DNA from: Saprospiraceae bacterium
GTDB taxonomy: Bacteria > Bacteroidota > Bacteroidia > Chitinophagales > Saprospiraceae
NCBI GenBank assembly: GCA_020629255.1
Contig: JAHDDR010000001.1
Location: 8,924-72,923 of the forward strand
Reading direction: 5' to 3'
DNA: 64,000 nucleotides
Shown: positions 9,922-48,954 of the stretch, in pieces
Layout of the letters: each line of letters opens with the position of its first letter
Position numbering within the stretch: position 1 is the first letter of the stretch
Program-made: the position numbers and the translations under genes
The notes under the pieces: model-generated
The model's database searches: none
What the model was told of the DNA's origin: nothing
What the model saw: only the letters and a program-made list of their open reading frames with translations

Positions 9922-9924
9922 AAA

Positions 9925-10995: not shown

Positions 10996-11011
10996 CTCGT
11001 GATTTTTAATT

Positions 11012-13062: not shown

Positions 13063-13067
13063 GTAAC

Positions 13068-32346: not shown

Positions 32347-34107
32347 TTAAGTTTTTTTCATAAAAGGCCACCAACTTTCCATAAGGCCGTCGGGTTCTAT
32401 CCGAGCAAAATTATTCATATAAACATCTATGTTTTTTTGCCGTTCCCTATCATTCCACCAAGCATTTAAATTGCTATAATTTTCATTAATTGTATCTGTT
32501 GCATTTTTATATGAGGTATGGATAATTTGTTGTTTCATCAATTTATCATAGAAGGGTTTTGCCGACTTTCTTACTTCGAACAATTCGGGATGCCCAGCAA
32601 TAATTATGGGTACTCCCATCGCTAATGTTTCTAATGTTGTCGTTCCTCCAAAATGATCTATGATTACTAAATTCGCCTTTTTAATTTGTTCTAAAAAGCT
32701 TTCTTGGTTCGATGCAAATTGAACGTCGGGAAAAGCAGTCTTCCATCGTTCTTTTAATTTCCAACCAAAATCATCTGGATATAATCTTATTTTTATTTTT
32801 TTCCGGATTTCAGGATCTATATTTTGATACAATCTTTTTTGATGTTCAAAATATAGTAAAAATCTTGTTCCAAAAACAATATTCCCTACAAAATAATTAA
32901 ATCGACAATCTGCTGTCGTTACCCAAATGATTTCGTCGTTGGGTTTTGTTTTTATTTTTGTACGGCTCATTAACCGAGGGGCTGGCATAGGTATTGTTTT
33001 TTCATTTTCTCTCCATCCCCATGTCAAGTATATATCTGATAGTTTTCTTTCTAAGAATTCTCCTTGTAACTGTTCTACTTCTCCGTAAGTTCCTCCATGC
33101 TGCACTCCTGCCACTTTAGTTCCTTTACTTGCACATCTCGCCGCCCATATAGCAAAATGAGTATTCCAAGTCCACCCAATTCCTGTAATGATAAGTCGGG
33201 GTATTTTTTTTGAAATCAATTTTTCTACATCTTGCTTTATTTCTTTGTACCCTTCCAATAATTCTATCGGAAAAAAATATTTGACAATATTAAAAAGTAT
33301 TATATCTGACTTCGTTTTGTTAGTAGAAAATTGTTCTATTTTTCTCCTTAGTTCGTAGTTTTTAATTCTTGATATTTCGAATTCCCTATTCTTTATAATA
33401 GGAGCAATCTTTCCTTTGCTTTTTATAAATAATTTCTGGAGTTCTTTATTTGAAAAAAGGGCGACGTAAATAGCGACATCACTTTCATACCCTTTATCCA
33501 TTTGATCTATAATTATTTGTTTTAGTATTTGTTTTACGCTTTTTTTATGACTCCCTCTTACTATTGAGGATGAGTCTTCATTTATATTCCATTCCTTTTT
33601 AGCAAAATCCAAATTATTTGGGTAGTATTCTTTTAATATAATTGAATATTGTTGGAGATGAAACCAAACACTTCCTCTTAATGCATGGAAATATTCTTTG
33701 GTGTTTAAGGGTGTTTGAAAGGCATCTGGATGGATACTAATTATTTTCCAATCTTTTTTTGACTCGAAGGCTTTCTCTATTCTTTTAATTTTCTCTAAAA
33801 AATTAGATATTATTGAATAAAGCCAAAAACCTGTTAATCTTTCCCAATATAATTTGTCTTTATCCTCTCCGTGTATGTCATTTAAAAAGAGAGCCAATTG
33901 GGGCAACATTCTATTATAATGCTCTAAGATCTCTTTTTTAAATGCCTTAATTTTTTCATTATCATTCCAAAAATCGGCAACTACAATCTTATTCCCAGAA
34001 TGGATGTCTTCTGGAAAAATCAGCGCATTTTCACTTAAAAAAAAATCTGCTTTTCGTTTCGTTAATTGTTCTGATGTAAGTTGTAGTAATTCCAATTTTT
34101 TATTCAA
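32347..34107 (-). CDS. Large uncharacterised putative transferase (possibly LIC12162-type)
   Basis: 586 aa, soluble. The C-terminal half has GT-B-like patches (GIGWTWNTHFAIWAARCASKGTKVAGVQHGGTYG; DHFGGTTTLETLAMGVPIIIAG). Size and O-antigen context recall the LIC12162 family. This is from memory only. Confidence 0.35.
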   Translation of the reverse strand: MNKKLELLQLTSEQLTKRKADFFLSENALIFPEDIHSGNKIVVADFWNDNEKIKAFKKEILEHYNRMLPQLALFLNDIHGEDKDKLYWERLTGFWLYSIISNFLEKIKRIEKAFESKKDWKIISIHPDAFQTPLNTKEYFHALRGSVWFHLQQYSIILKEYYPNNLDFAKKEWNINEDSSSIVRGSHKKSVKQILKQIIIDQMDKGYESDVAIYVALFSNKELQKLFIKSKGKIAPIIKNREFEISRIKNYELRRKIEQFSTNKTKSDIILFNIVKYFFPIELLEGYKEIKQDVEKLISKKIPRLIITGIGWTWNTHFAIWAARCASKGTKVAGVQHGGTYGEVEQLQGEFLERKLSDIYLTWGWRENEKTIPMPAPRLMSRTKIKTKPNDEIIWVTTADCRFNYFVGNIVFGTRFLLYFEHQKRLYQNIDPEIRKKIKIRLYPDDFGWKLKERWKTAFPDVQFASNQESFLEQIKKANLVIIDHFGGTTTLETLAMGVPIIIAGHPELFEVRKSAKPFYDKLMKQQIIHTSYKNATDTINENYSNLNAWWNDRERQKNIDVYMNNFARIEPDGLMESWWPFMKKT

Positions 34108-34109: not shown

Positions 34110-35639
34110 TTAAATGACTGCACTTTTTTTATGCGAAAGAAAGGACAGCTTATTCTTTATCCACATTCTATCTTGTTTATCCACTACCGTAAATATTCCG
34201 ACCGCATACATTAACATCGTTATCGTTCCGGCAACTAACCCTAGCAACCACCAATTATTGATTTCTTTAATCCAACCGTTTAAAGGAAGCAACAAGGCTC
34301 CACAAATCCAAAGAGGAAATTGGGCTTTGAAAATAATATTATAAAAATACTCTATAAATTTTATTTTCAGATCGGGCAACATCCACCACATAGCAACAGG
34401 AACAGATAACGCCCCTACCATTATTGTTCCTAATATCACTCCTTCTACTCCTATATAATTAACCAATATTATACTTGTTACTACATTTAATACTCCTACA
34501 ATAATTGCGATGACTCCCGGTTTTCTAGAATACCCCGCTCCCATATAAATCTGACCTAACATTGCTCCGGACTGCCAGAGTAATTGAAAGGCTATGCTCA
34601 TTTTTATCAGCCAAATGTATTCTAAATATTTTTCACCCATCCACAACCTAACAAATGGTTCTGCCAAAAAATAACAAGTAATTGTAATCGGAACAAATAA
34701 TAAATTATGGTATTTGATTCCTTTGTATATATATTTATCTACTCCTTTTTTTCCATCGGTTTCGTTAATCTGGCTAATAGCAGGCATTATTGCAGATGCT
34801 GCCAATCCTGATACTTGTTGTATGAGGCGGAACAAATAAAATATAATCGTGTAAACGGTAATAAAACTAGCAGACAAAAATCCTAATATTATTAATTGGT
34901 CTGCTTGATATTCCAACATGACTGCAATTTGCCCTAGCATTATCCAACTACTGAAAGCAAAAATTTCTTTAAATATTGTTTTTTTGAAATCTAAAAACCT
35001 AAAAGTCCAAAAAGGTATTTTCTTTTTCAAAAGGCCATACTGAAAAAAAACAAGGATAATTTTATCTAAATTAAATGCTATAAAAATCCATTCCAGCGAC
35101 ACCTTTGTATATAGGGTAAGAAAAATAGCGAGAGCGATCGAAATAACCCGCCCTATACCCAAGGTAATATTTAAGGTTGTAAAATCCTGAATCCCCTTAA
35201 ATACTCCTTTCAACAACATTTGGGGCCAAGAAAACACAGCCATTATTCCGGCAATTAAAAACGTATTTGTGTATGTGTTATACATAGATTTATCGAAATC
35301 CAGCCAACCAACTCCTCCTAATAAAGCCCATAAAGAAATAATTATTCCAACAAAAAGCCCTACGCCAATAAAAAAATTAAGTGCTGTATTAATGATGTCA
35401 TTAATTTTGGTATAATTTTTTTGTGCCAAATATTGAGACACATATTTAGTTACTCCATTTGCAATTCCTAAATCCAAAATATTAAAATACCCAACAACTA
35501 CACCAGCGAATAAAATAATTCCAAAGCTTTCTTCTCCTAGGTGACTCACCAGAACAGGAATAGCTATTATATTCAAAATGATTTGAAGTAATTTCAAAAC
35601 ATAATTGGCTAATGTATTTGTAACTATTTTTTTAAGCAT
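34110..35639 (-). CDS. wzx: Oligosaccharide-unit flippase (MOP superfamily, Wzx-type)
   Basis: 509 aa, 12 or more hydrophobic segments. The N-terminus TLANYVLKLLQIILNIIAIPVLVSHLGEESFGI is typical of the Polysacc_synt family. Confidence 0.8.
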   Translation of the reverse strand: MLKKIVTNTLANYVLKLLQIILNIIAIPVLVSHLGEESFGIILFAGVVVGYFNILDLGIANGVTKYVSQYLAQKNYTKINDIINTALNFFIGVGLFVGIIISLWALLGGVGWLDFDKSMYNTYTNTFLIAGIMAVFSWPQMLLKGVFKGIQDFTTLNITLGIGRVISIALAIFLTLYTKVSLEWIFIAFNLDKIILVFFQYGLLKKKIPFWTFRFLDFKKTIFKEIFAFSSWIMLGQIAVMLEYQADQLIILGFLSASFITVYTIIFYLFRLIQQVSGLAASAIMPAISQINETDGKKGVDKYIYKGIKYHNLLFVPITITCYFLAEPFVRLWMGEKYLEYIWLIKMSIAFQLLWQSGAMLGQIYMGAGYSRKPGVIAIIVGVLNVVTSIILVNYIGVEGVILGTIMVGALSVPVAMWWMLPDLKIKFIEYFYNIIFKAQFPLWICGALLLPLNGWIKEINNWWLLGLVAGTITMLMYAVGIFTVVDKQDRMWIKNKLSFLSHKKSAVI

Positions 35640-35658: not shown

Positions 35659-36711
35659 TTAAAATAAATCCCATGATAAAGGTGTTCCTTTTTCTAAGTC
35701 TTTCTTGGCTTTCATCCCTAGTACCTGTTCCCAATATTTAGGAGGTAATCCATCACCCGGTCGTATTACTTTTATATTTTCTGTAGTAAATGATTCCCCT
35801 TGTTTAATATTTTTTGAAACGTATATCGACCGTTTGAATTGTCGGCTTTTCATTTCTGCTTTCTGGGTGTCCAACTGTATATTGCCTAGAGCTAAAAAAG
35901 CTCTTTCTGTTTCTACGACCAAATCTGCCAATTCTTCCGGTTCCAAAGAAAAGGCACTGTCTACACCCCCATCTGCTCTTCGGAGGGTGAAGTGTTTTTC
36001 TATTACTCTAGCTCCTAATGCAACTGCGGCTACAGATGCTCCGATTCCCATGGTGTGATCTGACAACCCAATGACGCAGTCATCGAAAATAGATTGAAAA
36101 ACCGGTATGGTTCTCAAGTTTGTATTTTCTGGTGTGGCCGGGTAAGTCGATGTACATTTGAAAATGACAATATTTTGGGCTCCATTGGTTTTTAAGCATT
36201 GGATTGCTTCATACAATTCGTCTAGCTTACTGGTTCCTGAAGAAATTAGGATAGGCTTTCCTGTTTGGGCTACCTTTTTTAATAAAGGAAAATGGTTACT
36301 TTCAAAAGATGCTATTTTGTATGCCGGTACGTTTAATTCTTCTAGGAAATCAACTGCGGTTTCATCAAAAGGAGAAGAAAAAGCGACCATCCCCAGAGAA
36401 TTGGCATAGTCGAATATTTCTTTGTGCCATTCCCAGGGGGTGTATGCTTCTTGGTATAGTTCGTATAGATTTTTTCCTGCCCATAAAGATTGGGGATCAT
36501 TAATATCAAATAATCCTCCTCTGTGGTTTATTGTAATTGTATCTGCCGTATAGGTTTGTAACTTTAGGGCATGTGCTCCGGTATCGGCGGCTGCCTTTAC
36601 TAAATTTAATGCTCTTTTTATATCCCCATTATGATTTCCTGACATTTCCGCAATAATGAAAGGTTTTTCATTATGTCCTATATTTATATGACCTATATTG
36701 AAAGCTTTCAT
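35659..36711 (-). CDS. pseI: Pseudaminic acid synthase (NeuB family with C-terminal SAF domain)
   Basis: 350 aa. Shows PFIIAEMSGNHNGDIKRALNLVKAAADTGAHALKLQTY and the SAF-like IKQGESFTTENIKVIRPGDGL. Lies in an operon with pseB, pseC and pseG. Confidence 0.85.
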   Translation of the reverse strand: MKAFNIGHINIGHNEKPFIIAEMSGNHNGDIKRALNLVKAAADTGAHALKLQTYTADTITINHRGGLFDINDPQSLWAGKNLYELYQEAYTPWEWHKEIFDYANSLGMVAFSSPFDETAVDFLEELNVPAYKIASFESNHFPLLKKVAQTGKPILISSGTSKLDELYEAIQCLKTNGAQNIVIFKCTSTYPATPENTNLRTIPVFQSIFDDCVIGLSDHTMGIGASVAAVALGARVIEKHFTLRRADGGVDSAFSLEPEELADLVVETERAFLALGNIQLDTQKAEMKSRQFKRSIYVSKNIKQGESFTTENIKVIRPGDGLPPKYWEQVLGMKAKKDLEKGTPLSWDLF

Positions 36712-38144
36712 TCTGCTATATATTTATAAGAATCATCCATGTTTTCCGCTACTGTTTCCCGAAACTCTAAAATGGTTCGGAAAGCTTTAATAGATCCTAT
36801 ATTATTGAATTTGACAAAACCGACAATGGGTTTGTTTTTGTGTTCCGTTTTTTTCAACTCTCTCATTCCTCTTCTAATAATAGCGCTGCCCCAACCTTTC
36901 CCTCGCTCATTTTTATCCAAACTATAGCTAATGATTGCCTCTTCCTTTTTGATATCGAATCTGATTTGTCCTATAGGTTGTTGATTATTTGTAATGACAT
37001 ACAAATAACTATTTTCATCTTTCAATTTATTAAAAAACCATTTCTCATGGCTTTCGTATGGAATAGGCTCTGAATTGTATGATTGCTGCCTTGTTAATGG
37101 ATCATTCGACCATACATGATATAATCGGCAATCTTCTTTTTTTGCCTTTCGTGCATTCATACCTAAAGATTGGAAAATTCGGACAAATCGTTTTTGCTGC
37201 CGGCCATCCATCATTTTATTTTGCTTTGCCAACATAATTCCTAACGTTTTTGCATTGGTGTTAGGGAATTCATTCCAATCGAAAGCCAATTTTTCTTTTA
37301 TGAAATATTGATGGATGTCTTTTTGATTATCTGCTATTGTTTTCAGATATATTTCTCCCCCGCTGCTTAAATATTCGTAAGAAACTGTACTAGGTGTTAA
37401 AATGGCTTTATCGCATTTTCTCATCATGGCAGCCATTTGCTGTGCATTAAGATTTGAAAGAATTTGCACATTAAGTCTTGTTTTATGAAGAAAAGGATCT
37501 AATTCTTTTCTGTGCTTATATGCTCCACCCAATACAATAAAACAATTTTGAACAGAAGGTTCTTTTTCACATTTTTTTAAAACAGAAAGGGTATTATTTT
37601 TGGGATCCGCTCCTCCCAGACAAATAAAAATTCCTTCTTTCCTATTTTCTTTATTTTTATTTATTGCATTATTCCTAAATGGTTTTCTTAATAGGGAAAA
37701 ATCTAAACCAAGACAAAACTGGGTATACGGTTCGAATGAATAGTTTTCTCTTTTAACACCACCTGCATGATTAATAATAATATCTGCAAAAAAATGATAA
37801 TTATAAATATCATCAATACAAACTAAGCGACACCCTTTGTTTTTTATAATTTGTTGGTATTCTGTAATAAAATGATACCCATCCAGAACTACTATTTCGG
37901 GCCCATCTAAATATGTTTCTGCTAGCAGTTTTGCTTCGTGGATATCATTTTCGTTCTCAGACAATTCAACAATTTCCTTGCAAACCTCTAGGATTTGTTT
38001 TTTTAGTGTTGGCAATGGAGTTCTTATCATAAAATGACATTCGAATTCCTCTTGCAACATTTCTGCCAAGGCTAGGGAACGGAAAACATGGCCCAATCCT
38101 ATTTGGGCATTACCGTCCGCTCTGAAAAAAATCTTCTGTTTCAA
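36708..38144 (-). CDS. pseG: Fusion of UDP-2,4-diacetamido-2,4,6-trideoxy-beta-L-altropyranose hydrolase (PseG) with a PseH-like GNAT N-acetyltransferase
   Basis: 478 aa. N-terminus KIFFRADGNAQIGLGHVFRSLALAEML (PseG). The C-terminal ~150 aa carry a GNAT core (WSNDPLTRQQSY...HEKWF...IGQIRF...ERGKGWGSAIIRRG). Confidence 0.75.
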   Translation of the reverse strand: MKQKIFFRADGNAQIGLGHVFRSLALAEMLQEEFECHFMIRTPLPTLKKQILEVCKEIVELSENENDIHEAKLLAETYLDGPEIVVLDGYHFITEYQQIIKNKGCRLVCIDDIYNYHFFADIIINHAGGVKRENYSFEPYTQFCLGLDFSLLRKPFRNNAINKNKENRKEGIFICLGGADPKNNTLSVLKKCEKEPSVQNCFIVLGGAYKHRKELDPFLHKTRLNVQILSNLNAQQMAAMMRKCDKAILTPSTVSYEYLSSGGEIYLKTIADNQKDIHQYFIKEKLAFDWNEFPNTNAKTLGIMLAKQNKMMDGRQQKRFVRIFQSLGMNARKAKKEDCRLYHVWSNDPLTRQQSYNSEPIPYESHEKWFFNKLKDENSYLYVITNNQQPIGQIRFDIKKEEAIISYSLDKNERGKGWGSAIIRRGMRELKKTEHKNKPIVGFVKFNNIGSIKAFRTILEFRETVAENMDDSYKYIAE

Positions 38145-38146: not shown

Positions 38147-39460
38147 TTAATTGAGTCTTTTAAATCCTCCGTGGCACACGGGTCCTTCTAGAACTGCGAA
38201 TACATCTTCGCCTTCTTCAAAGGTTCTTATTTTTCGGAATACTTTTTCTAGTTCGTAGAAATATCTATCTACATGTTCTTCTGTATGGGCTGTACATACA
38301 TATACATTGTTAGATGCTAATATTCCAACTTTCAACATTTCTTGGGTTATGAAGGTCTTATATGCCAACCAATTATCCTTTTTACTTTTGATACTATATG
38401 TGGTCAATGCCGGGAGCCCGGCAGTGCTTACTTCCAGTCCACATTTTTCACCTAATTCTTTCCAGCGTCGTGTTATTTCTTTACCTGTATTTGTTATTGT
38501 TTCCCACGATTTTTCTCGTTCCATTACATTTAAAGTAGCAAGGGCTGCCGCTGGACCAATCCGTTCTGTCCAAAAAGTACTACTGATGAATGTTTTTTGG
38601 GCGGCTTGCATTATTTCTTTTTTGCCTATCACTCCAGTAATGGCGTAACCATTCCCCATTGCTTTTCCAAACATCGCCATATCTGGTTCCACACCATATT
38701 TTTTATGTAACCCTCCAAAAGTTTCCCTAAAACCAGAAGTACATTCATCAAATATCAATATGATATTATTTTCTTTTGTGATTTTTCTGATTTCTTCCAA
38801 ATACCCTGGTTCTGGACCGTGGTTTCTTGAGACTTCCATTTTCAATACACCCAAATCGGGGTTTTCAGAAATAATTTTCCTTACAGCATTAATATCGTTA
38901 TAGTTGAATGGAATGGTTGTATTAACGAGACCTTTCGGAACGCCTGCTGGTTGCAATCCTGGTAACAAATGTCCAGACAGCCCTTCTTCTTCTGATAGGT
39001 TGGTTGATATATACCAATCATGCCATCCATGATAACCACAAATTGCTACCTTGTCTTTTCCGCTTGCCGCTCTGGCTATTCGGATAGCGACAGCATTGGC
39101 TTCTCCTCCTGTCCGGCAAAATCTTGCCATATCTGCCCAAGGGTGCATCGCTATTAATTGTTCTGCGAGGTAAACTTCTTCGGGACAATTGAATGTGGAC
39201 ATATTACCGTCCTGCACCACTTTTCTAACAGCTTCATCCACTTCATCATTACCATAGCCCAAAGCATTTGTACCAATGCCCATAATGGTCATGTCTAGAA
39301 ATTCATTTCCATCCAGATCCCATACCTTACAACCTTTTGCCTTGCTAAAATACGCAGGCCAATTTTCGGGAAGGAACATTTCTGGTCTTTTGGATAACAA
39401 CATTGTTCCACCCGGAATTAGTGTTTTGGCTTTTTTATACAAATCTTGGCCTTTACCCAT
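38147..39460 (-). CDS. Class-III aminotransferase (glutamate-1-semialdehyde aminomutase-like)
   Basis: 437 aa. Shows GGEANAVAIRIARA, IFDECTSGFR and FGKAMGNGY (PLP lysine). Confidence 0.8.
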   Translation of the reverse strand: MGKGQDLYKKAKTLIPGGTMLLSKRPEMFLPENWPAYFSKAKGCKVWDLDGNEFLDMTIMGIGTNALGYGNDEVDEAVRKVVQDGNMSTFNCPEEVYLAEQLIAMHPWADMARFCRTGGEANAVAIRIARAASGKDKVAICGYHGWHDWYISTNLSEEEGLSGHLLPGLQPAGVPKGLVNTTIPFNYNDINAVRKIISENPDLGVLKMEVSRNHGPEPGYLEEIRKITKENNIILIFDECTSGFRETFGGLHKKYGVEPDMAMFGKAMGNGYAITGVIGKKEIMQAAQKTFISSTFWTERIGPAAALATLNVMEREKSWETITNTGKEITRRWKELGEKCGLEVSTAGLPALTTYSIKSKKDNWLAYKTFITQEMLKVGILASNNVYVCTAHTEEHVDRYFYELEKVFRKIRTFEEGEDVFAVLEGPVCHGGFKRLN

Positions 39461-40226
39461 CTTGTTTGTCTTTTTTAATGGATTTTAATAATCCTTCATT
39501 TCGTATAATATTTGAATTTATTGCTTGGATATTCGGATTTTCCAGAATGAAATTGGTGTATTCCATCCATGTCTTATCCATACCCATTTTTTCTACTACT
39601 GCTTTTATCAATTGATAATCTTTAGGTTCATCAACTGTCATCCTTACGTGTTCGTAGTCGTAACCTTCATCAAAATTATCTGACTGGAACAAGGTTCCTC
39701 CTTTGAAGGTTGAATTTCTCCACAAATAAGGTGTTACATGTTCCCTATCTGATAATGCTGTTGATTCGTTCCATGCTTTTTCTAAAGCTTCGAACTTAAA
39801 CACTTCTACATCCTGTCCATCCGGATAAGTGGGGTTCAAAACATTCGAACCATAATCTAATTGGTTATCCACTACAAATCGGATAACCTTATCTACTAGT
39901 GTTGCATCCAATAATGGGCAATCTGATGTTACCCTAACTACATAATCTGGCTCTTCGTTTTTGACAGCTTGATAGAAACGATCCAAAACATCATTTTCGG
40001 AACCTCTATAACAAGAAATCCTTTTTGTTGTTGCATAGGCTTCTATTTCAGCATCCTCGGGGTTGGTTGTCGTAGCTATTATAAGTTTGGAAATACATTC
40101 CGATTTTTGTACTCTTATAAGATGTAAATCCAACAACGTATGATTACCTATCTTTTTAAATATTTTTTGAGGCAATCTCGTTGACCCTAGCCTTGCTTGT
40201 GTTACTGCTATTATTTTCATGACCAA
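39453..40226 (-). CDS. SpsF-like cytidylyltransferase-domain protein (candidate CMP-nonulosonate synthetase)
   Basis: 257 aa. The N-terminus KIIAVTQARLGSTRLPQKI and VRVTSDCPLLD fit the CTP_transf_3/SpsF pattern. No canonical PseF-type gene is visible in the operon. Confidence 0.65.
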   Translation of the reverse strand: MVMKIIAVTQARLGSTRLPQKIFKKIGNHTLLDLHLIRVQKSECISKLIIATTTNPEDAEIEAYATTKRISCYRGSENDVLDRFYQAVKNEEPDYVVRVTSDCPLLDATLVDKVIRFVVDNQLDYGSNVLNPTYPDGQDVEVFKFEALEKAWNESTALSDREHVTPYLWRNSTFKGGTLFQSDNFDEGYDYEHVRMTVDEPKDYQLIKAVVEKMGMDKTWMEYTNFILENPNIQAINSNIIRNEGLLKSIKKDKQDG

Positions 40227-41086
40227 TTTGACGGATTTAACAAATCAATTTCATCTACATGGATGGAATCGATTTCTTTTTGGATTTTTTTATCCAATGG
40301 TTGTGCTATTGCATTTATATTTTGAAGAAATTGTTTTTTGTTATCCACCCCTATAAGTATCCCATCAATACAAGGATTCGCTAATACATATTTTAAGGCA
40401 AGATCTGCCATCGGAATATCGTGTTTTTGGGTTATAGATTTTATTTTTTCTAAATTTTTAGATAGGGGTTTTAATTTTTCGGGGAGGTTGCTTATTTGTT
40501 TAAAAAACAAGCCTTGTAAAAACACAGAACGAACATGTATTATTTTTCCTTTTTCCTTTGCTTCTTCCAGCAAGGTTCCCCGTTGAGTATTATTGTCGAG
40601 TAAATTATACGGTAATTGGATAACGTCAATACTATCGTTTTTTAATACTTCTTCAAATTGTTCGTTGGTATAAATGGAAACTCCTATGTTTTTTATTTTC
40701 CCTTTGCTTTTTTGGTTTTCCAGTTGATTAATCAGGTGTTTATATTTTATATAATCGTTGAATGAATGAAACAAATATGCCCAAATATTCCGAGTGCCTA
40801 TCCTCTCTAGTGTCTTATTGATTAGTGATTCTATATTTTGTATTCTTTCTTCGTTTGATTTAAACTTTGTTATGATATCAAAATATCGATTATTCTTTTG
40901 ATGATAATCACCAATAATATCAGATGCATTCCCATAGGCATCTGCTGTATCCAGCAAAGTAAGACCTTCTGCATGAGCTACATCTAAAATTTGATGGACC
41001 TCTTTTTTTTGAACTTTACCCTTCGGGTTATTAATTCCATAATCCAATCCGAACTGAACTGTTCCTAAAATAATTTTATCAATCAT
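40217..41086 (-). CDS. Aldo/keto reductase
   Basis: 289 aa. Shows ILGTVQFGLDYGI, LDTADAYGNAS and IQLPYNLLD. Confidence 0.8.
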   Translation of the reverse strand: MIDKIILGTVQFGLDYGINNPKGKVQKKEVHQILDVAHAEGLTLLDTADAYGNASDIIGDYHQKNNRYFDIITKFKSNEERIQNIESLINKTLERIGTRNIWAYLFHSFNDYIKYKHLINQLENQKSKGKIKNIGVSIYTNEQFEEVLKNDSIDVIQLPYNLLDNNTQRGTLLEEAKEKGKIIHVRSVFLQGLFFKQISNLPEKLKPLSKNLEKIKSITQKHDIPMADLALKYVLANPCIDGILIGVDNKKQFLQNINAIAQPLDKKIQKEIDSIHVDEIDLLNPSNWS

Positions 41087-41089: not shown

Positions 41090-42238
41090 CTATTTGGCAA
41101 ATGCCAGTACTTGTTCTATTACGTATTGTTGTTCTTCATCTGTCAAGCTGGGGTACATGGGCAAACTGATGCATTTTTCATAGTATGCTTCAGCATTGGG
41201 CATGCTTCCTTTTTTATACCCTTGGGAATTATAATAACCTAATGTATGTACTGGGATATAATGTATCTGGGCATAGATGTTCTTCTCTCTCAGCTTTTGA
41301 TACAATTCTTTCCGATTATCGATCTGCACAACATACAAATGATATGCATGCCCTATTTGAGTAGGAGGTATAATGGTTTTCACTTTTGTCCCCTCAAAGA
41401 CTTGATCATATCTACTTGCGATGGATCTTCTTCTTGCTAATCCTTGATCTGCTTTATCCAATTGTGTAATCCCCAATGCACATTGAAAATCGGTTAACCG
41501 ATAATTATATCCTAAAGTAACCATATCATAAGCCCAACCTCCTTTTTCCTCCATGATCTCATTATTTTTCACAATGCCATGCGTTCTCAAGGCCATGAGT
41601 TTATCATACAAATCCTTATTATTCGTGGTAATCATTCCTCCTTCTCCACAAGCAATGTGCTTTACTGGATGAAAGGAGAATACGGTGAGGTCGGAATAGG
41701 TTCCATCTCCTGAAAGAATTTTATCGCCTTTGCTATTTATAAAAGATGCCCCCGGAGCATGGCAAGCATCTTCAACAATCCAAAGATCATATTCATCAGC
41801 CAATTTTCTGAATTCTTCAGTATTTACAGGATAGCCTGCAAAATCGACTGGAATTATTCCTTGGTAGGTACCTTTTGGTGAAGCTTCTAAAAGTTCTCTT
41901 ACTTTATCTATATCCAAAAGGATATTTTCAGGATCAATATCAGCAAAAACAACTTCTCCTCCGCAATATCTGACACAGTTCGCAGATGCCGCAAAAGTGA
42001 TGGGTGTTGTTATGACTTTGCTTCCTTTATTTACACCTAAAGCCAGTGCACATAAATGAAGGGCTGCTGTGCCATTAGAAATAGCTACAGCATATTTTGA
42101 ATTCACATATTTTGCAAATAACGTTTCGAATTCTGCAACTTTCGGACCTGTTGTCAAGTAGTCCGATTTCAAAATTTCAACTACAGCATCTATATCTTTT
42201 TGATCGATATTCTGCCTACCATAAGGTATTGCTTTCAT
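41090..42238 (-). CDS. pseC: UDP-4-amino-4,6-dideoxy-N-acetyl-beta-L-altrosamine transaminase
   Basis: 382 aa. Shows MKAIPYGRQNIDQKDIDAVVEILKSDYLTTGPKVAEFE and FSFHPVKHIACGEGG (PLP lysine). Confidence 0.85.
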   Translation of the reverse strand: MKAIPYGRQNIDQKDIDAVVEILKSDYLTTGPKVAEFETLFAKYVNSKYAVAISNGTAALHLCALALGVNKGSKVITTPITFAASANCVRYCGGEVVFADIDPENILLDIDKVRELLEASPKGTYQGIIPVDFAGYPVNTEEFRKLADEYDLWIVEDACHAPGASFINSKGDKILSGDGTYSDLTVFSFHPVKHIACGEGGMITTNNKDLYDKLMALRTHGIVKNNEIMEEKGGWAYDMVTLGYNYRLTDFQCALGITQLDKADQGLARRRSIASRYDQVFEGTKVKTIIPPTQIGHAYHLYVVQIDNRKELYQKLREKNIYAQIHYIPVHTLGYYNSQGYKKGSMPNAEAYYEKCISLPMYPSLTDEEQQYVIEQVLAFAK

Positions 42239-42264: not shown

Positions 42265-43296
42265 TCAAGTGGTTTTGGAAGTTATGGTAAAATTGGGATC
42301 AACATGTTCTTTAATCAAAATTCTAAGTTCTTCGGCTGAAAGCCATTCTGTATTATCTCCTGAATTATAACTGAAGCCAAGAGGCACTTTCTCCGCTCCA
42401 AATGCTTCAACATAATCATTGATATCCCAATTAAGAACTGAGGGCAAAATAGTATAGTATTTTCCTAAATCATATGTGTTATAGGAATCCGACGCTGTAA
42501 TCATTTCTTCATGAATTTTTTCACCTGGTCTAATTCCCACGAATCGATGTTCAATATCCGGAGCAATTGCTTTTGCTATTTCCGTAATTTTATACGAAGG
42601 GATTTTTGGGACAAACAACTCCCCTCCCCAAGCGTGGCTCAAAGCATGGAACACCATGTCTACTCCGCCATCAAGAGAAATATTGAATCGAGTCATGTTC
42701 GGATCGGTAATTGGCAAGAATCCTTCATTCCTTTTTTTGATAAAGAATGGAATTACAGAACCATTCGAACCCATCACGTTCCCATATCGGACAACAGAAA
42801 ACCTAATTGGATTCTTTCCCCTTATATTATTGGCGGCAATGAACAATTTATCCGAAGTAAGTTTTGTAGCTCCATATAAATTAATTGGAGCACAAGCTTT
42901 GTCTGTTGATAAAGCCACTACTCTTTTTACTTGTGTCTGCAAACAAGCATGAATCACATTTTCTGCTCCTCCAATATTGGTTTTTATACATTCTGAAGGA
43001 TTGTACTCTGCAATAGGAACATGCTTCATTGCCGCTGCATGGATCACATAATCTATACCATTCATGGCACGTATCATCCTTTCCTTATCTCTAACATCCC
43101 CGATAAAAAACCTTATTGCCGGATAATCCTGAACCGGATATTGTTGTGCCATTTGGAATTGTTTCTGCTCATCCCTTGAAAATATAACTACTCTCGCAAC
43201 TTTTGGAAAGTCTGAAAAAATTCTTTTTGTAAGTGCTTTTCCCAAAGATCCTGTTCCTCCTGTTATAAGAATGGATTTTCCGTTTAAGTCTAACAT
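42265..43296 (-). CDS. pseB: UDP-N-acetylglucosamine 4,6-dehydratase (inverting)
   Basis: 343 aa. Shows LNGKSILITGGTGSLGKALTKRI, IFSRDEQKQ, STDKACAPINLYGATK and VRYGNVMGSNGSVIP. Confidence 0.9.
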   Translation of the reverse strand: MLDLNGKSILITGGTGSLGKALTKRIFSDFPKVARVVIFSRDEQKQFQMAQQYPVQDYPAIRFFIGDVRDKERMIRAMNGIDYVIHAAAMKHVPIAEYNPSECIKTNIGGAENVIHACLQTQVKRVVALSTDKACAPINLYGATKLTSDKLFIAANNIRGKNPIRFSVVRYGNVMGSNGSVIPFFIKKRNEGFLPITDPNMTRFNISLDGGVDMVFHALSHAWGGELFVPKIPSYKITEIAKAIAPDIEHRFVGIRPGEKIHEEMITASDSYNTYDLGKYYTILPSVLNWDINDYVEAFGAEKVPLGFSYNSGDNTEWLSAEELRILIKEHVDPNFTITSKTT

Positions 43297-43335: not shown

Positions 43336-44529
43336 TTATATAAAAACCAATTTCACTTTCTCCCTACTACAATGACCCGACCACATAGACAAGGTGTTCG
43401 CTCCACAATCAGCTATAATGATCCAATCCTTTTCTTGTATTTCGGGCAACTCGACGTCTCTTCTTAAAAAATCTCCTGAGAAACATAGTGGTCCGCCAAT
43501 ATCATATTTTTTATTTCCCTTTTCTTTCAAATTCCCTTCCGGTGATACAACAGAAATTTGATGATAGGGTGGGTGGGTGCTATAAATTTCTCTAGGAAAT
43601 AAATCTGCCCCTACATGTATAAGTGCTATCGGGGCTTCTGTATAATCTAGAACGTATTCTACACGACTTGCTACAAATGCTGCATGTGCATGTACAAAGC
43701 GTCCGTATTCTGTAATAATTTTATAATTGAAAAAAATATTAGGGCATTTACTTTCCAACAAATTTACAAAGTCTTCCAAGCCTTGTTGGATTCCTTCTTC
43801 CATTTTAGCAGAAAATCCGCCACCTATATCTAATATTTTTATTTTATTTTTTTGACGGGCATTTATTTCTTCTGCTATCTCATAAATCCTTTTTATGGCT
43901 TCTATATGTCCCTCAAGTTTTCCGATTTCGGAACCAGCATGAACGTGTAGTGCATATACATTGTCTATAGCTAGGGCATATTTTATTATTATTTCTTTTT
44001 GATTTATCGGTATTCCAAATTTGGAACGGTTATTACTTACATTATAAATGCCCGGAGCGCCCGTATCTACCAAGGGATTTATCCGAATTCCAATTTTAAG
44101 GTTTTTTGCTTTTTTTATTCTTTCTAATTCTGAAAAACAATTTACATTTAAAAGTAATCCTTTAAAATGTTCATTACAATAATTAATTTCTTCTTGGGTT
44201 TTTACCGGAGAATCAAAAACAATTTTTTCGGCTGGACAGCCTGCTTTTTTTGCTAGCATCACTTCTTCAAAAGATGCTGCTTCCAAACCAAAACCCTTAT
44301 TTACAATATGGGAAAGTACACGCGGCTCGTTCTGTGTCTTAATGGCTATTGCATGTAGTGCATTATCTGGAAAAAGTTCTTTTAGATGGGAGAGTCTATT
44401 ATTTAAAATATTTTTGGAATATATATAATAGGATTTCTCTGTACTTGTTTTTTCTTTTTCAAGTATCGTTTTAAAAATTTCGGATCTCTCCTTGTTGTTA
44501 TACCTAATTAAAACTGCCTGCTTTATCAT
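43336..44529 (-). CDS. Fold-type III PLP-dependent decarboxylase (Orn/Lys/Arg/DAP decarboxylase family), substrate unknown
   Basis: 397 aa. Shows HAIAIKTQNEP (PLP lysine, compare YAVKAN), GFGLEAASFEEVMLAKKAG, LDIGGGF, ITEYGRF and GGPLCFSGDFL (conserved Cys). 26-nt overlap with the upstream CDS. Confidence 0.8.
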   Translation of the reverse strand: MIKQAVLIRYNNKERSEIFKTILEKEKTSTEKSYYIYSKNILNNRLSHLKELFPDNALHAIAIKTQNEPRVLSHIVNKGFGLEAASFEEVMLAKKAGCPAEKIVFDSPVKTQEEINYCNEHFKGLLLNVNCFSELERIKKAKNLKIGIRINPLVDTGAPGIYNVSNNRSKFGIPINQKEIIIKYALAIDNVYALHVHAGSEIGKLEGHIEAIKRIYEIAEEINARQKNKIKILDIGGGFSAKMEEGIQQGLEDFVNLLESKCPNIFFNYKIITEYGRFVHAHAAFVASRVEYVLDYTEAPIALIHVGADLFPREIYSTHPPYHQISVVSPEGNLKEKGNKKYDIGGPLCFSGDFLRRDVELPEIQEKDWIIIADCGANTLSMWSGHCSREKVKLVFI

Positions 44530-45898
44530 CTAAAATTTTCATCAACTGCCGATCCCAATCGTACCTTACGGCAATTTCTTTTTGTTGTAATTGATAGATA
44601 TTATAAGCACCAATTGCTACCCGAATAAAAGCACCGCAACTATACCTTACCGGTTGCCCTATAAATATTTTATTAAATTTCCCTATCCTTATTTCTTCGG
44701 ATGTAATTTCGGCAAAAAAATCTTTCAGTTCGTCATACTCCATGTACTCTCCGTTAGATTTTTTAACCCTAAAAGAAATAATACTCCTATTGGTTCTTTC
44801 TTGGTTCGGCATTAATTCGAGGTTATTGCTTTTTGCTATGCATTCCCGAACAATAGCATTCCAAAGATTAATTACATCGTTTGATTTTTCTCTTGGAATT
44901 TTATTGAAGCGTTCCATTTCGTCCAAACCAATTTCCCATCTTAATAAAAGTCCTTTATTTTTCTTTTTTGGAAAATATTGGGCTAATGCAGAAAATTCAT
45001 CTGTAAAATCATAATAGGAAAATATTTTATCGAAACCCTTTAAAAGATCTTTTTGCACTTGTGCCTTATTTAATTTTTCGCACATTTCATTGGGCACTAA
45101 CATAACACCACAAAACGGAGGGGCCATATAAAACTTCGAACCCGTAATCATAACCATGCACCCCATGTCAATTAATTCGTTGACAAGTTTCTTGGAGTTT
45201 CTGAACTGGCATAAATCCACGACCCACATGACATCTTTGCTCAGCTTGGGTATGATGGTCACATCATCTTCTATACCGGATTTGCTTCCAATAACCAAGG
45301 CTCCAATTACTGATTTATCAGAATGAGTTTTGATCCTCAAACTGATGTCATTTTCATTTCGGTTTACTTCTCCATTATTATTACGAGCCGTATAGCGTTT
45401 CATACTAATATCGTAACCGCTATTGATGTCTTCTCCTTTTTCTATTGCTTCGTCGAATTGGTTTCTGCCTGCGTAGTATTTCCCCAGATATGCCAACTGA
45501 CTTCCCGAACCCAATTCTTCCGGGCAAGTTAAAAGTAGTTCTATGGGTTTTTTAGGGTAGAGGATATTGGAAAACATGGCGGGCAAATACGCTAGGTCGC
45601 TTCCCGAAGGACCGAATACCAATCCGAATTTATCTTTTCCTTCGTAATTCAATAATTTTTTAATCCGATATGCCTGTTCTTTCCTGATTTCCAAAAAAGA
45701 TTCTTCATAACGGGTAAAATCTTCATTTAAGAATTTTCCTGTTATGGGATTTAATGGGGAACAGGTACAAGAGCCACGTAAAAAGATGCCTTCATACTCC
45801 ATCGGATTGATGTGATATTTATTGAATCCATCTTCTAATATATCCAACCTTTCATCGCCTCCGCTTACCACCAAATGGCTACTTGTTTCTACATTCAT
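44504..45898 (-). CDS. Uncharacterised class-V-aminotransferase-fold (fold-type I) PLP enzyme
   Basis: 464 aa. Shows VFGPSGSDLAYL, VVDLCQ (the Asp-x-x-Gln of class V enzymes) and ITGSKFYMAPPFCG. The last parallels the S-x-H-K..GP.G.G PLP-lysine motif of cysteine-desulfurase-like enzymes. No closer family recognised. Confidence 0.5.
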   Translation of the reverse strand: MNVETSSHLVVSGGDERLDILEDGFNKYHINPMEYEGIFLRGSCTCSPLNPITGKFLNEDFTRYEESFLEIRKEQAYRIKKLLNYEGKDKFGLVFGPSGSDLAYLPAMFSNILYPKKPIELLLTCPEELGSGSQLAYLGKYYAGRNQFDEAIEKGEDINSGYDISMKRYTARNNNGEVNRNENDISLRIKTHSDKSVIGALVIGSKSGIEDDVTIIPKLSKDVMWVVDLCQFRNSKKLVNELIDMGCMVMITGSKFYMAPPFCGVMLVPNEMCEKLNKAQVQKDLLKGFDKIFSYYDFTDEFSALAQYFPKKKNKGLLLRWEIGLDEMERFNKIPREKSNDVINLWNAIVRECIAKSNNLELMPNQERTNRSIISFRVKKSNGEYMEYDELKDFFAEITSEEIRIGKFNKIFIGQPVRYSCGAFIRVAIGAYNIYQLQQKEIAVRYDWDRQLMKILDDKAGSFN

Positions 45899-45907
45899 GT
45901 TTTCTCT

Positions 45908-47203
45908 TTATAATTTCCAATACTCCATTTCCTCATCTTTTCTTTTCAAATCGTAGCAATTCTTAAGATCGATGAGTATACCTTCTTCTTTGGACAATCT
46001 CTTGAAATAAGATATGTCCAAGTTTTTATATTCATTATGGGCAACCGCTACAATAATAGCATCGTAATCTTTAGAAGGTTCATCTATCAGGGTAAGGTTG
46101 TATTCATGTGCTACTTCGTTGGGCGAAGCCCAACAATCCATTACATGGACATTGATGGAGTAATCCATGAGTTCTTTTACCAAATCAACCACTTTGGAAT
46201 TCCTAATATCGGAGACATTCTCCTTGAAGGTGATTCCCTTGACCAATACTTTGCATTCACTTGGATTTTTCCCTTTTGAAATCAGCATTTGAACCAATTT
46301 CTTGACTACAAATGCGGGCATATAATCATTGATTCTCCGTCCTGCCGCAATAACTTGCGGATCGTAACCCAATTGTTTGGATTTGTGCATGAGGTAGTAC
46401 GGATCAACACCAATGCAGTGCCCTCCTACCAAGCCCGGATAAAATTTGAGGAAATTCCATTTCGTGCCTGCGGCTTTCAATACTTCTTGTGTATCAATAT
46501 TCATTTTATCGAATATAATCGCCAACTCGTTCATGAGGGAAATGTTCAAATCCCTTTGAGTATTTTCGATCACTTTTGCAGCCTCGGCTACTTTTACTGA
46601 AGAAGCCCGATGGGTTCCTGCCTTGATAATATGGGAATACACTTTATCGATTTCTTCCAAAGATTCATCATCACACCCTGATACTATTTTTAAAATAGTT
46701 GTCAATGTTCGTTCCTTATCCCCCGGATTGATCCTCTCAGGAGAATAACCGAATTTAAAATCCGAATTTCTTTTCAGCCCAGATTTTTCTTCGATAATCG
46801 GCAAACAATCATCTTCAGTACAACCGGGATATACCGTAGATTCAAAAACGACATAATCCCCTTTTTTAATGACTTGTCCTACACTACCAGATGCCTTAAG
46901 CAAAGGTGTCAAATCGGGTATTTTATGTTCATTGATATCTGTGGGTACAGCCACAACGAAAAAGTGAGCTTCCTTCATTTTTTCGATATTTGTCGTAAAT
47001 TCGATATCTGTTCCTTCAAATGCTTGAGTATCCAATTCTTTGGAAGGATCGATACCTTTTCTCATCAAATCGACCCTTTCATCATTGATATCGAAACCTA
47101 TCACACTAAAATAACGTGCAAATTCCAATGCTATCGGTAGACCAACATAACCTAAACCGACAACAGCAATTTTCTTTTTCTTATCTAATAATTCTTGATA
47201 CAT
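45908..47203 (-). CDS. UDP-N-acetylhexosamine 6-dehydrogenase (TviB/WbpO/WecC-type nucleotide-sugar dehydrogenase)
   Basis: Start set at M41 of the ORF (ATG 47203). This puts the Rossmann motif KIAVVGLGYVGLPIALEF near the N-terminus and removes an 83-nt overlap with the upstream gene. Catalytic-Cys motif GGHCIGVDP. Confidence 0.85.
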   Translation of the reverse strand: MYQELLDKKKKIAVVGLGYVGLPIALEFARYFSVIGFDINDERVDLMRKGIDPSKELDTQAFEGTDIEFTTNIEKMKEAHFFVVAVPTDINEHKIPDLTPLLKASGSVGQVIKKGDYVVFESTVYPGCTEDDCLPIIEEKSGLKRNSDFKFGYSPERINPGDKERTLTTILKIVSGCDDESLEEIDKVYSHIIKAGTHRASSVKVAEAAKVIENTQRDLNISLMNELAIIFDKMNIDTQEVLKAAGTKWNFLKFYPGLVGGHCIGVDPYYLMHKSKQLGYDPQVIAAGRRINDYMPAFVVKKLVQMLISKGKNPSECKVLVKGITFKENVSDIRNSKVVDLVKELMDYSINVHVMDCWASPNEVAHEYNLTLIDEPSKDYDAIIVAVAHNEYKNLDISYFKRLSKEEGILIDLKNCYDLKRKDEEMEYWKL

Positions 47204-47240
47204 CCTAAATCGGGTTATCCCTAAATTCGTTTTTGATTCT

Positions 47241-48905
47241 TTAAAATCCCCAATTGAAACTAATCCAAGCAAAGGTGTTTTTTCCTTCCATGAAACTTGG
47301 TGAATATGAATCTGTTTGATCATCCATGTCTGAAATGGACAACATCGCCTTCACATACATATCATTAAAGATTTCGTATTGTACTTCTCCTCCGAATTCT
47401 GTTTTGCTATATCTAACTTCTTCCATAAATGGAATTCCCTTAAAGCCACCAAACCCGGGGAGATGCCCATAATCGTCGGGACCTTTTCTTTGTTTGAGAT
47501 AAAAGGCTTCAATTCTTAATTTGGCCAAAGGTTTGAAATTCACCTCAATATATAATTCATCTGCATTGTCTGTTAGATAATGCCCTAGGTTATAGGAATT
47601 GTTGGCGAATGTTGTTGCTTCTAAACCATGTTTGTAAGCATAGGGGTTGGAACGTGTGTATTCGGCCACCAAACCAATATTTGATTTTGCTACATTTCGA
47701 ACTGCTGTTCCTAGCTTAAACCCTAATTCATTCCGTTGACGTTCTTTGTCGAAGAAGACCGAAAATTTCATTTCATCTATAAAGAGTGTTCCGTAAAGGT
47801 GTACATTCTTAATATTCCTGGAACTGATGTCCAAAAATAATTGACCATTCTGTCCTGCTTTGTTGGATTGGCTACTTTGTGCATGATCCACTGAACGGTA
47901 AAAGAAGAATGGAATCAAGTATGCGGGGTTGAAACTATAATCAGAGTATACGGTCGAATTACCGAAAGAAATGTGCAAGCCTTTCGTTGGTTTGAGGGTA
48001 AACATATTGGCTGCTATTGCTTTTTGCCTAAATATATACCGTGTTCCTCCGTTGGATGCTATATAGGTTCTGGTACTATCTATGACATCCGAATTGAGCC
48101 ATCCATGAATGTAATTAAATTCGAGCCATTCGATGGGTTTTACTTGGAGTTTGATTTGTGGGATGGCTGGAAAATTACCTGAAAAAATATTGGCTCCTTT
48201 ATTTGTGTTTCCCCACATGAATTGGTCTTGAATCAAACCGATGGTTCCCCAATTCCACGAATATGTAATACCTCCTCTTACCTCACTAAAATCTGTCAAA
48301 TCTTTTTCTCTATTAGGTCGATTAACTCCCACAGTTAGCGTATTGAAATAATTGGGGTCGATCAATTCTTGATTTTCAGAAACATCCCTGAAACTAAAAT
48401 AAGCCGAGAATCCTTTTCCTAAATAGGCGTTCACTTCCCCACCGTATGTTCTTCTATAGATATTGTCGGTCGCCAAGAGTTCCAGGCCTATTATCGGATT
48501 GACCGATACTTGAAATTTATCCGAACTAAAAAAGAGGGCATCCAAACGTTTTATTTCACTGGTATGGAACCATGTTTTTTTCGAGAAGAATTTTTCTTCG
48601 TTATATACAGCGTTCAATTCTTCCCGTTTGGCTTCTTTTCCAAAATCTTTTAGGAAGAAATCCAATTCTTTGCTTTGCCTTTTATTCAATTCCTCTCTTT
48701 TCCCTTCCAATTCTACGAGGCGATTTGCAATGAACCGTCGAGAATATGGCTTTATAGCCGAATTGATTTCTATTAATTTTTGAGCTGCGACTTCATCCAA
48801 AAATTCATAGATGGAATATTTGGATGTGTGTTGGTATATGTCTTGTGCATTTGTTGCACCAGCCAACAAAATCAATATCCAAATTGAAAAAATTCTAAAC
48901 ACCAT
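47241..48905 (-). CDS. wzi: Capsule-assembly Wzi-family outer-membrane protein
   Basis: Start set at M28, giving the signal peptide MVFRIFSIWILILLAGATNAQ. The N-terminal helical segment IYEFLDEVAAQKLIEINSAIKPYSRRFIANRL is like Bacteroidota Wzi proteins. The body is beta-strand rich and ends SFNWGF. Confidence 0.6.
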   Translation of the reverse strand: MVFRIFSIWILILLAGATNAQDIYQHTSKYSIYEFLDEVAAQKLIEINSAIKPYSRRFIANRLVELEGKREELNKRQSKELDFFLKDFGKEAKREELNAVYNEEKFFSKKTWFHTSEIKRLDALFFSSDKFQVSVNPIIGLELLATDNIYRRTYGGEVNAYLGKGFSAYFSFRDVSENQELIDPNYFNTLTVGVNRPNREKDLTDFSEVRGGITYSWNWGTIGLIQDQFMWGNTNKGANIFSGNFPAIPQIKLQVKPIEWLEFNYIHGWLNSDVIDSTRTYIASNGGTRYIFRQKAIAANMFTLKPTKGLHISFGNSTVYSDYSFNPAYLIPFFFYRSVDHAQSSQSNKAGQNGQLFLDISSRNIKNVHLYGTLFIDEMKFSVFFDKERQRNELGFKLGTAVRNVAKSNIGLVAEYTRSNPYAYKHGLEATTFANNSYNLGHYLTDNADELYIEVNFKPLAKLRIEAFYLKQRKGPDDYGHLPGFGGFKGIPFMEEVRYSKTEFGGEVQYEIFNDMYVKAMLSISDMDDQTDSYSPSFMEGKNTFAWISFNWGF

Positions 48906-48954
48906 ATTCCTATTTGTTAGATCAAGAGAAGATTTCCGTACACATTGCCGTTGT

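Follow-up and report, generated by a model that had tools for sequence, protein, structure and literature searches.

An additional gene trio in a pseudaminic acid operon

We analysed a stretch of 64,000 nucleotides, called the window throughout, from a Saprospiraceae bacterium (assembly GCA_020629255.1, contig JAHDDR010000001.1, positions 8,924 to 72,923). It contains an operon for the nonulosonic acid pseudaminic acid (Pse), in which genes for an aldo/keto reductase (AKR), an SpsF-type cytidylyltransferase (CT) and a class-III aminotransferase (AT3) are inserted between pseC and pseG. The window is a single long polysaccharide locus on the minus strand with a GC content of ~33-38%. An earlier note had read the order pseB, pseC, AKR, SpsF-like CT, AT3, pseG-GNAT and pseI from the sequence, and family scans confirmed these seven genes and their coordinates. 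They are listed here in the direction of transcription, followed by two context genes.

42265-43296, minus strand: pseB, inverting UDP-GlcNAc 4,6-dehydratase (TIGR03589, 506 bits; cut-off 408)
41090-42238, minus strand: pseC, DegT-type 4-aminotransferase (TIGR03588, 469 bits; cut-off 423.5)
40217-41086, minus strand: AKR, proposed NAD(P)+-dependent dehydrogenase (PF00248, E 2e-38)
39453-40220, minus strand: SpsF-type CT (PF02348, COG1861-like), proposed cytidine monophosphate (CMP)-nonulosonate synthetase (PF02348, E 7e-28)
38147-39460, minus strand: AT3, class-III aminotransferase dependent on pyridoxal phosphate (PLP) and similar to glutamate-1-semialdehyde (GSA) aminomutase, proposed keto-nonulosonate transaminase (PF00202, E 4e-42)
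36708-38144, minus strand: fusion of pseG (UDP-sugar hydrolase) and a GNAT domain in a putative PseH role (TIGR03590, 197 bits, residues 4-280; cut-off 153.6)
35659-36711, minus strand: pseI, pseudaminic acid synthase (TIGR03586, 484 bits; cut-off 340)
34110-35639, minus strand: Wzx-type flippase, context gene (PF01943, PF13440, WZX_like model)
32347-34107, minus strand: LIC12162-family transferase, candidate CMP-nonulosonate transferase (TIGR04331, 323 bits; cut-off 225)

PseB, PseC, PseG and PseI equivalogs were all found above cut-off within this one locus. The GNAT domain of the PseG fusion spans residues 332-456 (PF13302, E 9e-8, and PF00583) and scores 27 bits with the PseH model, against a cut-off of 93. 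That no canonical pseF is visible had been noted before, and none was found at the locus or in the genome (271 contigs, 89% complete). No match to PseF (TIGR03584) was observed at the locus, and the best match in the genome, on another contig, reaches 29 bits compared to a cut-off of 205.7. The SpsF-type protein is the sole nonulosonate-type CT found in this genome. Between pseB and pseI of the window there is no short-chain dehydrogenase/reductase (SDR); the class-III aminotransferase stands in that place.

PseC and AKR are separated by a 3-nt gap, CT and AT3 overlap by 8 nt, a 2-nt gap lies between AT3 and PseG, and PseG and PseI overlap by 4 nt. The first three junctions agree with the earlier note, which had also given a 10-nt overlap of AKR and CT. 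The latter is based on a TTG start at 40226 in the list of open reading frames. An ATG at 40220 is the likelier start, leading to a protein of 255 aa (MKIIAVTQAR...) that fits the family consensus. With this start, the 10-nt overlap is replaced by a 4-nt ATGA overlap with the AKR stop codon. A scan for promoter- and terminator-like sites inside the operon was uninformative, as their counts equalled those in shuffled sequence without any excess.

Features of the three additional proteins

The AKR has the catalytic tetrad D46/Y51/K74/H107, with no substitution in 58 of 58 orthologues. Its best NCBIfam match is the regulator KidO (99 bits), and we considered a KidO-like, non-catalytic protein; this assignment was rejected because of the invariant tetrad. 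The closest homologues of the CT carry the JGI name SpsF, and PDB entry 6oew, described as a ‘cytidylyltransferase’, matches with an E value of 4e-33.

For AT3, the best NCBIfam models are GSA-aminomutase-like, namely PRK06209 (260 bits; cut-off 486) and hemL TIGR00713 (200 bits; cut-off 527). An identity as HemL was rejected, since the scores fall far short of these thresholds and the operon surroundings do not vary. K266 aligns with the Schiff-base lysine of GSA aminomutase and D238 with the aspartate that binds the pyridine nitrogen, and across 74 sequences both show a conservation of at least 95%. The solved relatives comprise GSA aminomutases, which are the nearest (E 1e-43), and sugar C-6′ aminotransferases (PDB 7lm0, 7lld). 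AT3 falls into two clades of 48 and 26 sequences with the same operon position in both; within the clade of the window, identities of 69-85% are reached across several Bacteroidota orders. Overall, the sequences support that the three extra genes are catalytically intact and functionally coupled to the Pse genes.

Conservation of the trio across genomes

To survey the arrangement, one genome per species was scanned for SpsF relatives. Close CT homologues number in the thousands, and more than 577 loci were obtained, the best 80 of which were analysed. These 80 loci span Bacteroidota, Methanobrevibacter, Patescibacteria, Bdellovibrionota, Planctomycetota, Spirochaetales and an Asgard archaeon. 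In tblastn searches with the window proteins, AT3 was found adjoining the CT in 75 loci, AKR in 65, a NeuB/PseI synthase in 68, PseB in 57 and PseC in 56. The AKR gene lies immediately upstream of the CT in 65 of the 80 loci. The usual order is pseB, pseC, (GNAT/methyltransferase/PseF), AKR, CT, AT3, (PseG and/or GNATs, other tailoring genes), pseI, and Mariniflexile and Dawidia soli carry the same cassette. Gene fusions also occur. Long CT homologues are mostly CT-AT3 fusions of ~690 aa, which are common. AKR-CT fusions of ~545 aa are present in P0155, P0218 and P0237, where AT3 is still the next gene, and an SpsF-NeuB fusion of 591 aa was found among the relatives. Chance can hardly account for an arrangement shared by dozens of genomes across many phyla. 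As judged from gene order, the trio is a conserved module and not a local oddity.

These data also bear on another explanation of the operon, in which its product is plain Pse5Ac7Ac and AKR and AT3 are passengers with no metabolic connection to it. Except for its type of CT, the operon has the full set of core Pse genes, but nothing specific speaks for passengers. The adjacency that is kept across many phyla, the fusions and the translational coupling in the window make this explanation highly improbable.

In a second sample of 300 species of the phylum Bacteroidota, 30 genomes besides that of the window were PseI-positive (above cut-off). In five of these 30, AKR, CT and AT3 follow one another in exactly this order, and no protein reaches the PseF cut-off. 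About 10 of the 30 have an SpsF-type CT within ~5 kb of pseI with no AT3 match there, and the remaining genomes are without an SpsF-type CT.

PseG is found less regularly: a tblastn match to the PseG domain was obtained in just 26 of the 80 loci. At many trio loci (L013, L015, L020, L027, L031, L046 and others), the region from AT3 to pseI contains no recognisable PseG, but GNATs only. Aeromonas subgroups ID and IE have likewise been reported without PseG (PMC7874193). Some loci combine a CT-AT3 fusion with a more divergent second SpsF-like CT adjoining pseI (L006, with the fusion at 10001-12070 and the second CT past pseI; G223:C25; G119:C21), which places two activating enzymes within one operon.

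The trio as an addition to the Pse pathway

The trio had been described in the earlier note as replacing canonical pseF. A simple replacement was rejected, since the trio and a true PseF coexist in other genomes. In L021 (Mucilaginibacter), a true PseF is encoded between pseC and AKR (TIGR03584, 245 bits; cut-off 205.7), and L015 and L039 are arranged in the same way. Due to this coexistence, the trio can sit on a complete canonical pathway. The description is too simple also because SpsF-type CTs adjoin pseI without AKR or AT3 in about one-third of Bacteroidota Pse loci. Their position next to pseI suggests that SpsF-type CTs are ordinary Pse activators in this phylum. This is in line with data on two other enzymes: B. 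subtilis makes legionaminic acid without spsF but needs the gene to transfer it (PMC7439481), and FlmC of Caulobacter crescentus, a non-PseF CT, suffices for Pse glycosylation in E. coli (PMC7591256). From the gene contents, the trio is best regarded as a tailoring module added to the pathway, with its SpsF-type CT as the sole putative activator remaining in this genome. It is likely that the SpsF-type protein is the CT of the pathway, that is, a putative CMP-nonulosonate synthetase.

Locus variants and the source of the keto group

A Bacteroidales capsule cassette lacks both PseC and AKR. It was observed at seven loci (L023, L037, L047 at 7766-14332, L049, L052, L060 and L061) and contains upxY/upxZ, PseB, CT, an AT3 that is 65% identical to that of the window, a divergent NeuB-like synthase, DUF218 and a 210-aa protein without a family. 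In the L047-type cassette, PseB scores 532 bits, and the NeuB-like synthase stays under both the PseI and the NeuB cut-offs. Neither a PseC above cut-off nor an AKR orthologue was found genome-wide in the five cassette genomes searched, one of which is a complete B. pyogenes genome. Judging by its genes, this minimal cassette probably makes an undescribed PseB-derived amino-nonulosonate. Another variant (L028, L078, L084) combines PseB, AKR, CT and AT3 with an RmlD-like reductase, a divergent NeuB and a GNAT. L069 and L072 have a GFO/IDH/MocA oxidoreductase in place of AKR.

To compare these variants, PseC or the RmlD-like reductase was counted as consumer of the PseB keto group, and AKR or GFO/IDH/MocA adjoining AT3 as oxidoreductase; loci with full flanks were used. 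Consumer and oxidoreductase occur together in 41 loci and both are missing in 7, there is no locus (0) with a consumer and without an oxidoreductase, and in 5 an oxidoreductase is present while the plus strand shows no consumer. AT3 has its own oxidoreductase when the PseB keto group is used elsewhere, which fits the AKR as a dehydrogenase that supplies AT3. The earlier note had reasoned that an oxidoreductase makes a ketone and an aminotransferase makes an amine from it. This logic is borne out by the comparison, as AKR or GFO lies beside AT3 in 41 of 41 full-flank loci with a consumer. We consider it probable from these patterns that AT3 receives its keto group from the AKR.

A third, more distant cassette (L088-L095, e.g. 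L091:4043-13140) was observed in genomes G126, G062, G021, G025, G190, G160, G098 and G238. It carries an SpsF-like CT (34-45% identical) and a class-III aminotransferase (31-37% identical), and no PseB or PseC was found near it. The gene order is a weak Epimerase_2-like GT-B protein, CT, a split transketolase, the aminotransferase, an SDR (adh_short_C2), a 171-aa protein and a short NeuB-like synthase without the SAF domain. Of the 300 species sampled from the phylum, ~32 have this cassette, with conservation over whole families (5/5, 3/3 and 10/16).

The closest tested system is encoded by a prophage of A. baumannii. By complementation and nuclear magnetic resonance (NMR), epaA and epaB were found to convert Pse5Ac7Ac to 8-epi-Pse (Sharar et al. 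2025, PMC12053666). EpaA is a fusion of CTP_transf_3 and Aldo_ket_red domains, EpaB is an SDR (adh_short_C2), and the strain already has PsaA-F (PMC12053666). A search for EpaA in a phage collection gave no relevant match. Among our loci, L115 (2510-11841) carries pseB, pseC, AKR, SDR (adh_short_C2), SpsF-type CT, a PhyH dioxygenase, pseG, a carbamoyltransferase and pseI, and has no AT3. It shows the Epa composition in unfused form and, like the trio of the window, this set lies between pseC and pseG. This indicates that a core of AKR and CT recurs with a variable partner. L102 (9532-17606) and L104 (9577-19901) contain AKR, two GFO/IDH/MocA proteins and CT, again without AT3. By analogy, a second oxidoreductase as partner would lead to a C8 epimer as in A. 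baumannii, and with AT3 as partner an amine would be the simplest product.

Alternatively, AKR and AT3 might make a small donor of an N-acyl or other substituent, in the manner of a γ-aminobutyrate (GABA) transaminase and semialdehyde reductase pair, with the SpsF-type CT as the PseF analogue of the lineage. SpsF-type CTs do serve Pse loci that have no AKR or AT3. The N-acyl groups of Pse are also very diverse, and the loci are rich in formyltransferases, ATP-grasp enzymes, PIG-L deacetylases and amidotransferases. On the other hand, a donor pathway leaves the SpsF-AT3 and AKR-SpsF fusions, the EpaA precedent, the pairing of AT3 with its own oxidoreductase and the AT3 without AKR in the minimal cassette unexplained. 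In addition, the window has no ligase or extra acyltransferase for attaching such a group. This makes a substituent donor improbable.

Proposed pathway and site of amination

For the window, we propose that PseB, PseC, the GNAT domain in the PseH role, PseG and PseI first make Pse5Ac7Ac, based on family membership. AKR might then use NAD(P)+ as a dehydrogenase to turn a free hydroxyl of the nonulosonate into a ketone, the likeliest case being oxidation of the C8 hydroxyl to a methyl ketone. The PLP-dependent AT3 would convert the ketone to an amine, resulting in 8-amino-8-deoxy Pse (5,7,8-triamino-3,5,7,8,9-pentadeoxy-nonulosonate). Activation by the SpsF-type CT would give the CMP-sugar, which the LIC12162-family transferase and Wzx/Wzy would bring into a surface polysaccharide. 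As the operon encodes one GNAT, the new amine should be free unless it is acylated by an enzyme encoded elsewhere. It seems very likely from gene content that the module acts on a Pse-type sugar. The complete reading, in which AKR, SpsF-type CT and AT3 form a tailoring-and-activation module for C8 oxidation, transamination to an 8-amino Pse derivative and CMP activation, has in our judgement an even chance of being correct.

The canonical PseI should condense the normal diacetamido hexose, which leaves the C4 and C8 hydroxyls of Pse free. We favour C8 because EpaA/EpaB acts at this carbon, because natural variation is concentrated there (8-epimers), because the sugar of Tenacibaculum maritimum is 8-aminated and because of methyl-ketone chemistry. 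A methyl ketone is a typical class-III transaminase substrate. The assignment of the modified site to C8, which is drawn by analogy, could nevertheless go either way.

The same oxidation and transamination might take place at another position or stage: at the C4 hydroxyl of the nonulosonate, at C7 by a different route, or on the free 6-deoxy-hexose before PseI. The regiochemistry is not fixed by anything in the sequence. Moreover, AT3 of the Bacteroidales cassette, with its 65% identity, would have to use the PseB keto group at C4 of the hexose, which becomes C7 of the nonulosonate. Against another position stands PseI, which at 484 bits is canonical and should therefore accept the usual 2,4-diacetamido sugar. 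PseC has already placed an amine on C7, and one at C3 of the hexose would block formation of the pyranose ring. Class-III enzymes are not known to act on nucleotide sugars. Furthermore, EpaA/EpaB acts at C8 (PMC12053666), and known natural variants, 8-epimers as well as 8-amino forms, cluster at this carbon. Another position or stage is thus unlikely, although it is the strongest of the alternatives considered here.

Two observations on acylation and mass bear on whether an additional amine is formed. From pseB to pseI, trio loci contain a mean of 1.57 GNAT domains (n=42) compared to 0.83 in Pse loci of the phylum without AT3 (n=18), and at least two GNAT domains occur in 21 of 42 versus 2 of 18 loci; the model used for counting was a hidden Markov model built from trio-locus GNATs, which favours detection in trio loci, and relatives among the loci are not independent. 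The excess would fit an extra amine that carries an acyl group in roughly half of the lineages. The second observation comes from Aeromonas. Group I flagellin glycosylation islands (subgroups IA-IE) contain pseB, pseC, an ‘alpha/keto reductase’, ‘pseF’, a class-III aminotransferase, pseG and pseI (Forn-Cuni et al. 2021, PMC7874193). About 90 strains have this order, the extra genes were given no function, and A. hydrophila AH-1 was placed in subgroup IA (PMC7874193). The polar flagellin of AH-1 carries a single Pse-like sugar of 403 Da (oxonium m/z 404) with unsolved structure, and several of its fragments are one m/z unit off those of the A. caviae Pse derivative (PMC4691044). According to the nitrogen rule, the odd nominal residue mass means an odd nitrogen count, which suggests to us a third nitrogen.

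Several points weigh against the proposed 8-amination. The AH-1 mass data are of low resolution, and an acetamidino group, which is isobaric with a change from hydroxyl to amino, or other nitrogen-bearing groups are possible. The pairing of AT3 with an oxidoreductase comes from few independent lineages, and the 7 AKR-less loci are all of one cassette type. In this cassette, which has neither PseC nor AKR, the sole available keto group is that of PseB. Its AT3 must, by gene content, use a keto group at C7 or one shifted from C7, which makes the regiochemistry of AT3 uncertain and is the main worry for the C8 site. Finally, if the AKR domain of EpaA is the reductase that forms the 8-epimer, an orthologous AKR would, by analogy, not oxidise native Pse.

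A further possibility is that no final extra amine is formed. AKR and AT3 might epimerise or rework a centre, through a transient keto or amino group or by conversion of an amine to a hydroxyl, or AT3 might be an enzyme of the aminomutase or racemase type. EpaA/EpaB is indeed an epimerase pair, and GSA aminomutases are the nearest solved relatives of AT3. The class-III fold also includes racemases, and the LeuMetRace model matches the L047 orthologue. Where epimerisation is expected, the partner is instead a second oxidoreductase (the SDR of L115 and the two GFO proteins of L102 and L104) and not AT3, whereas one oxidoreductase together with a transaminase is the classic amination pair. Extra N-acyltransferases tend to occur in trio loci, and the nominal mass of the AH-1 glycan is odd. 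An outcome without an additional amine is hence unlikely.

Biological implications

If 8-amination holds, the AKR/SpsF-type CT/AT3 module would be the missing genetic basis of 8-amino-8-deoxy (5,7,8-triamino) nonulosonic acids, triamino sugars would be common but overlooked, and AKR plus CT would form a general platform for C8 tailoring in which the partner (SDR, GFO or aminotransferase) decides between epimer and amine. We put this general view forward tentatively, at slightly less than an even chance. The range of the module would then cover Bacteroidota, Aeromonas, Bdellovibrionota, Patescibacteria, methanogens and Asgard archaea. So far, triamino sialic-acid-like sugars have been reported once, in T. 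maritimum in 2003. The earlier note had mentioned an 8-amino nonulosonic acid from a marine flavobacterial fish pathogen. This compound is real: an 8-amino manno-configured nonulosonate exists in Flexibacter/Tenacibaculum maritimum, and the same source cites the 8-amino derivative of 3-deoxy-D-manno-octulosonic acid, Kdo8N (PMC3210612). Tenacibaculum is neither among the 80 kept loci nor in the list of AT3 homologues, but no search was aimed at T. maritimum. Papers on its genome and O-antigen cluster do not list the relevant genes in their texts.

C8 amination would provide a genetic handle on how T. maritimum makes its 8-amino sugar, a question dating from 2003, and on the 403-Da flagellin glycan of AH-1, unsolved since 2015. 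Nonulosonic acids occur on flagella, capsules and O-antigens, where they affect immune recognition, the attachment of phages and serotyping. Zwitterionic triamino sugars would become predictable from genomes in many phyla, and the enzymes could be used to make C8-aminated sialic-acid analogues.

Further genes of the polysaccharide locus

The same polysaccharide locus contains three sulfotransferase genes on the minus strand (PF13469/PF00685; 31440-32180, 53393-54313 and 55859-56752) and two Wzy-like genes (27643-28899 and 54573-55862). This gene content suggests one or two sulfated surface polysaccharides. Directly upstream of pseB, at 43336-48986 on the minus strand, lie genes for a PLP decarboxylase resembling diaminopimelate decarboxylase (lysA model, 202 bits, below cut-off), for a 464-aa and a 581-aa protein without Pfam match, and a gene of the UDP-glucose/GDP-mannose dehydrogenase family. 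From their annotation, these genes may serve an amide-decorated uronic acid branch. At 20984-23107 (minus strand), a 707-aa fusion of a zinc-type alcohol dehydrogenase region (ADH_N/ADH_zinc_N) and a GFO/IDH/MocA oxidoreductase is encoded.

Comparison with known systems

The operon resembles the canonical CMP-Pse pathway of Campylobacter and Helicobacter (PseB/C/H/G/I/F) in that PseB, PseC, PseG and PseI are above their cut-offs and a GNAT is a candidate for the PseH step. It differs by the lack of PseF, by the candidate PseH being a domain fused to PseG, and by the extra AKR and class-III aminotransferase. With regard to chemistry, the KdnB/KdnA route to 8-amino-Kdo in Shewanella follows the sequence of events proposed here: a hydroxyl of an ulosonic acid is oxidised and transaminated before CMP activation. 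This route uses an iron-type alcohol oxidase and another aminotransferase, and its target is the primary alcohol of an eight-carbon sugar. The CT of the window, which has the PF02348 fold, can be compared with B. subtilis SpsF (PMC7439481) and Caulobacter FlmC (PMC7591256), which are also CTs of non-PseF/NeuA type in legionaminic acid or Pse pathways. Unlike the CT of the window, they act without an AKR or AT3 partner.

The earlier note had assumed that the genetic basis of such derivatives is undescribed. The literature searched gave nothing on how 8-amino or triamino nonulosonates are made. The genes themselves had been seen: the gene order was drawn in Aeromonas (PMC7874193), a CT-AKR fusion followed by a dehydrogenase was reported for a NeuA-less Pse cluster in a survey of Vibrio and Moritella (PMC7371886), and EpaA/EpaB made 8-epi-Pse. 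According to the description in the paper, the gene order of the Aeromonas islands is identical to that of the window. These islands serve flagellin glycosylation via Maf, whereas the window is a Wzx/Wzy polysaccharide locus of Bacteroidota. EpaA/EpaB, likened here by its description, shares with the window a CTP_transf_3 CT that is coupled to an AKR and one further enzyme and is added to a complete Pse pathway. In EpaA/EpaB, the CT and AKR are fused, the partner is an SDR and the product is an 8-epimer; in the window, separate genes encode AKR and then CT, and the partner is a class-III aminotransferase. Since the Aeromonas gene order has already been drawn and the sister module EpaA/EpaB has been characterised, the system described here is an extension of a known pathway and not a new kind of system. 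We think that four points are new: the finding of the trio alongside a true PseF, the Epa-like set of unfused AKR, SDR and CT genes at the same operon position, the rule that AT3 has its own oxidoreductase when the PseB keto group is used elsewhere, and the link between subgroup IA of AH-1 and its 403-Da glycan.

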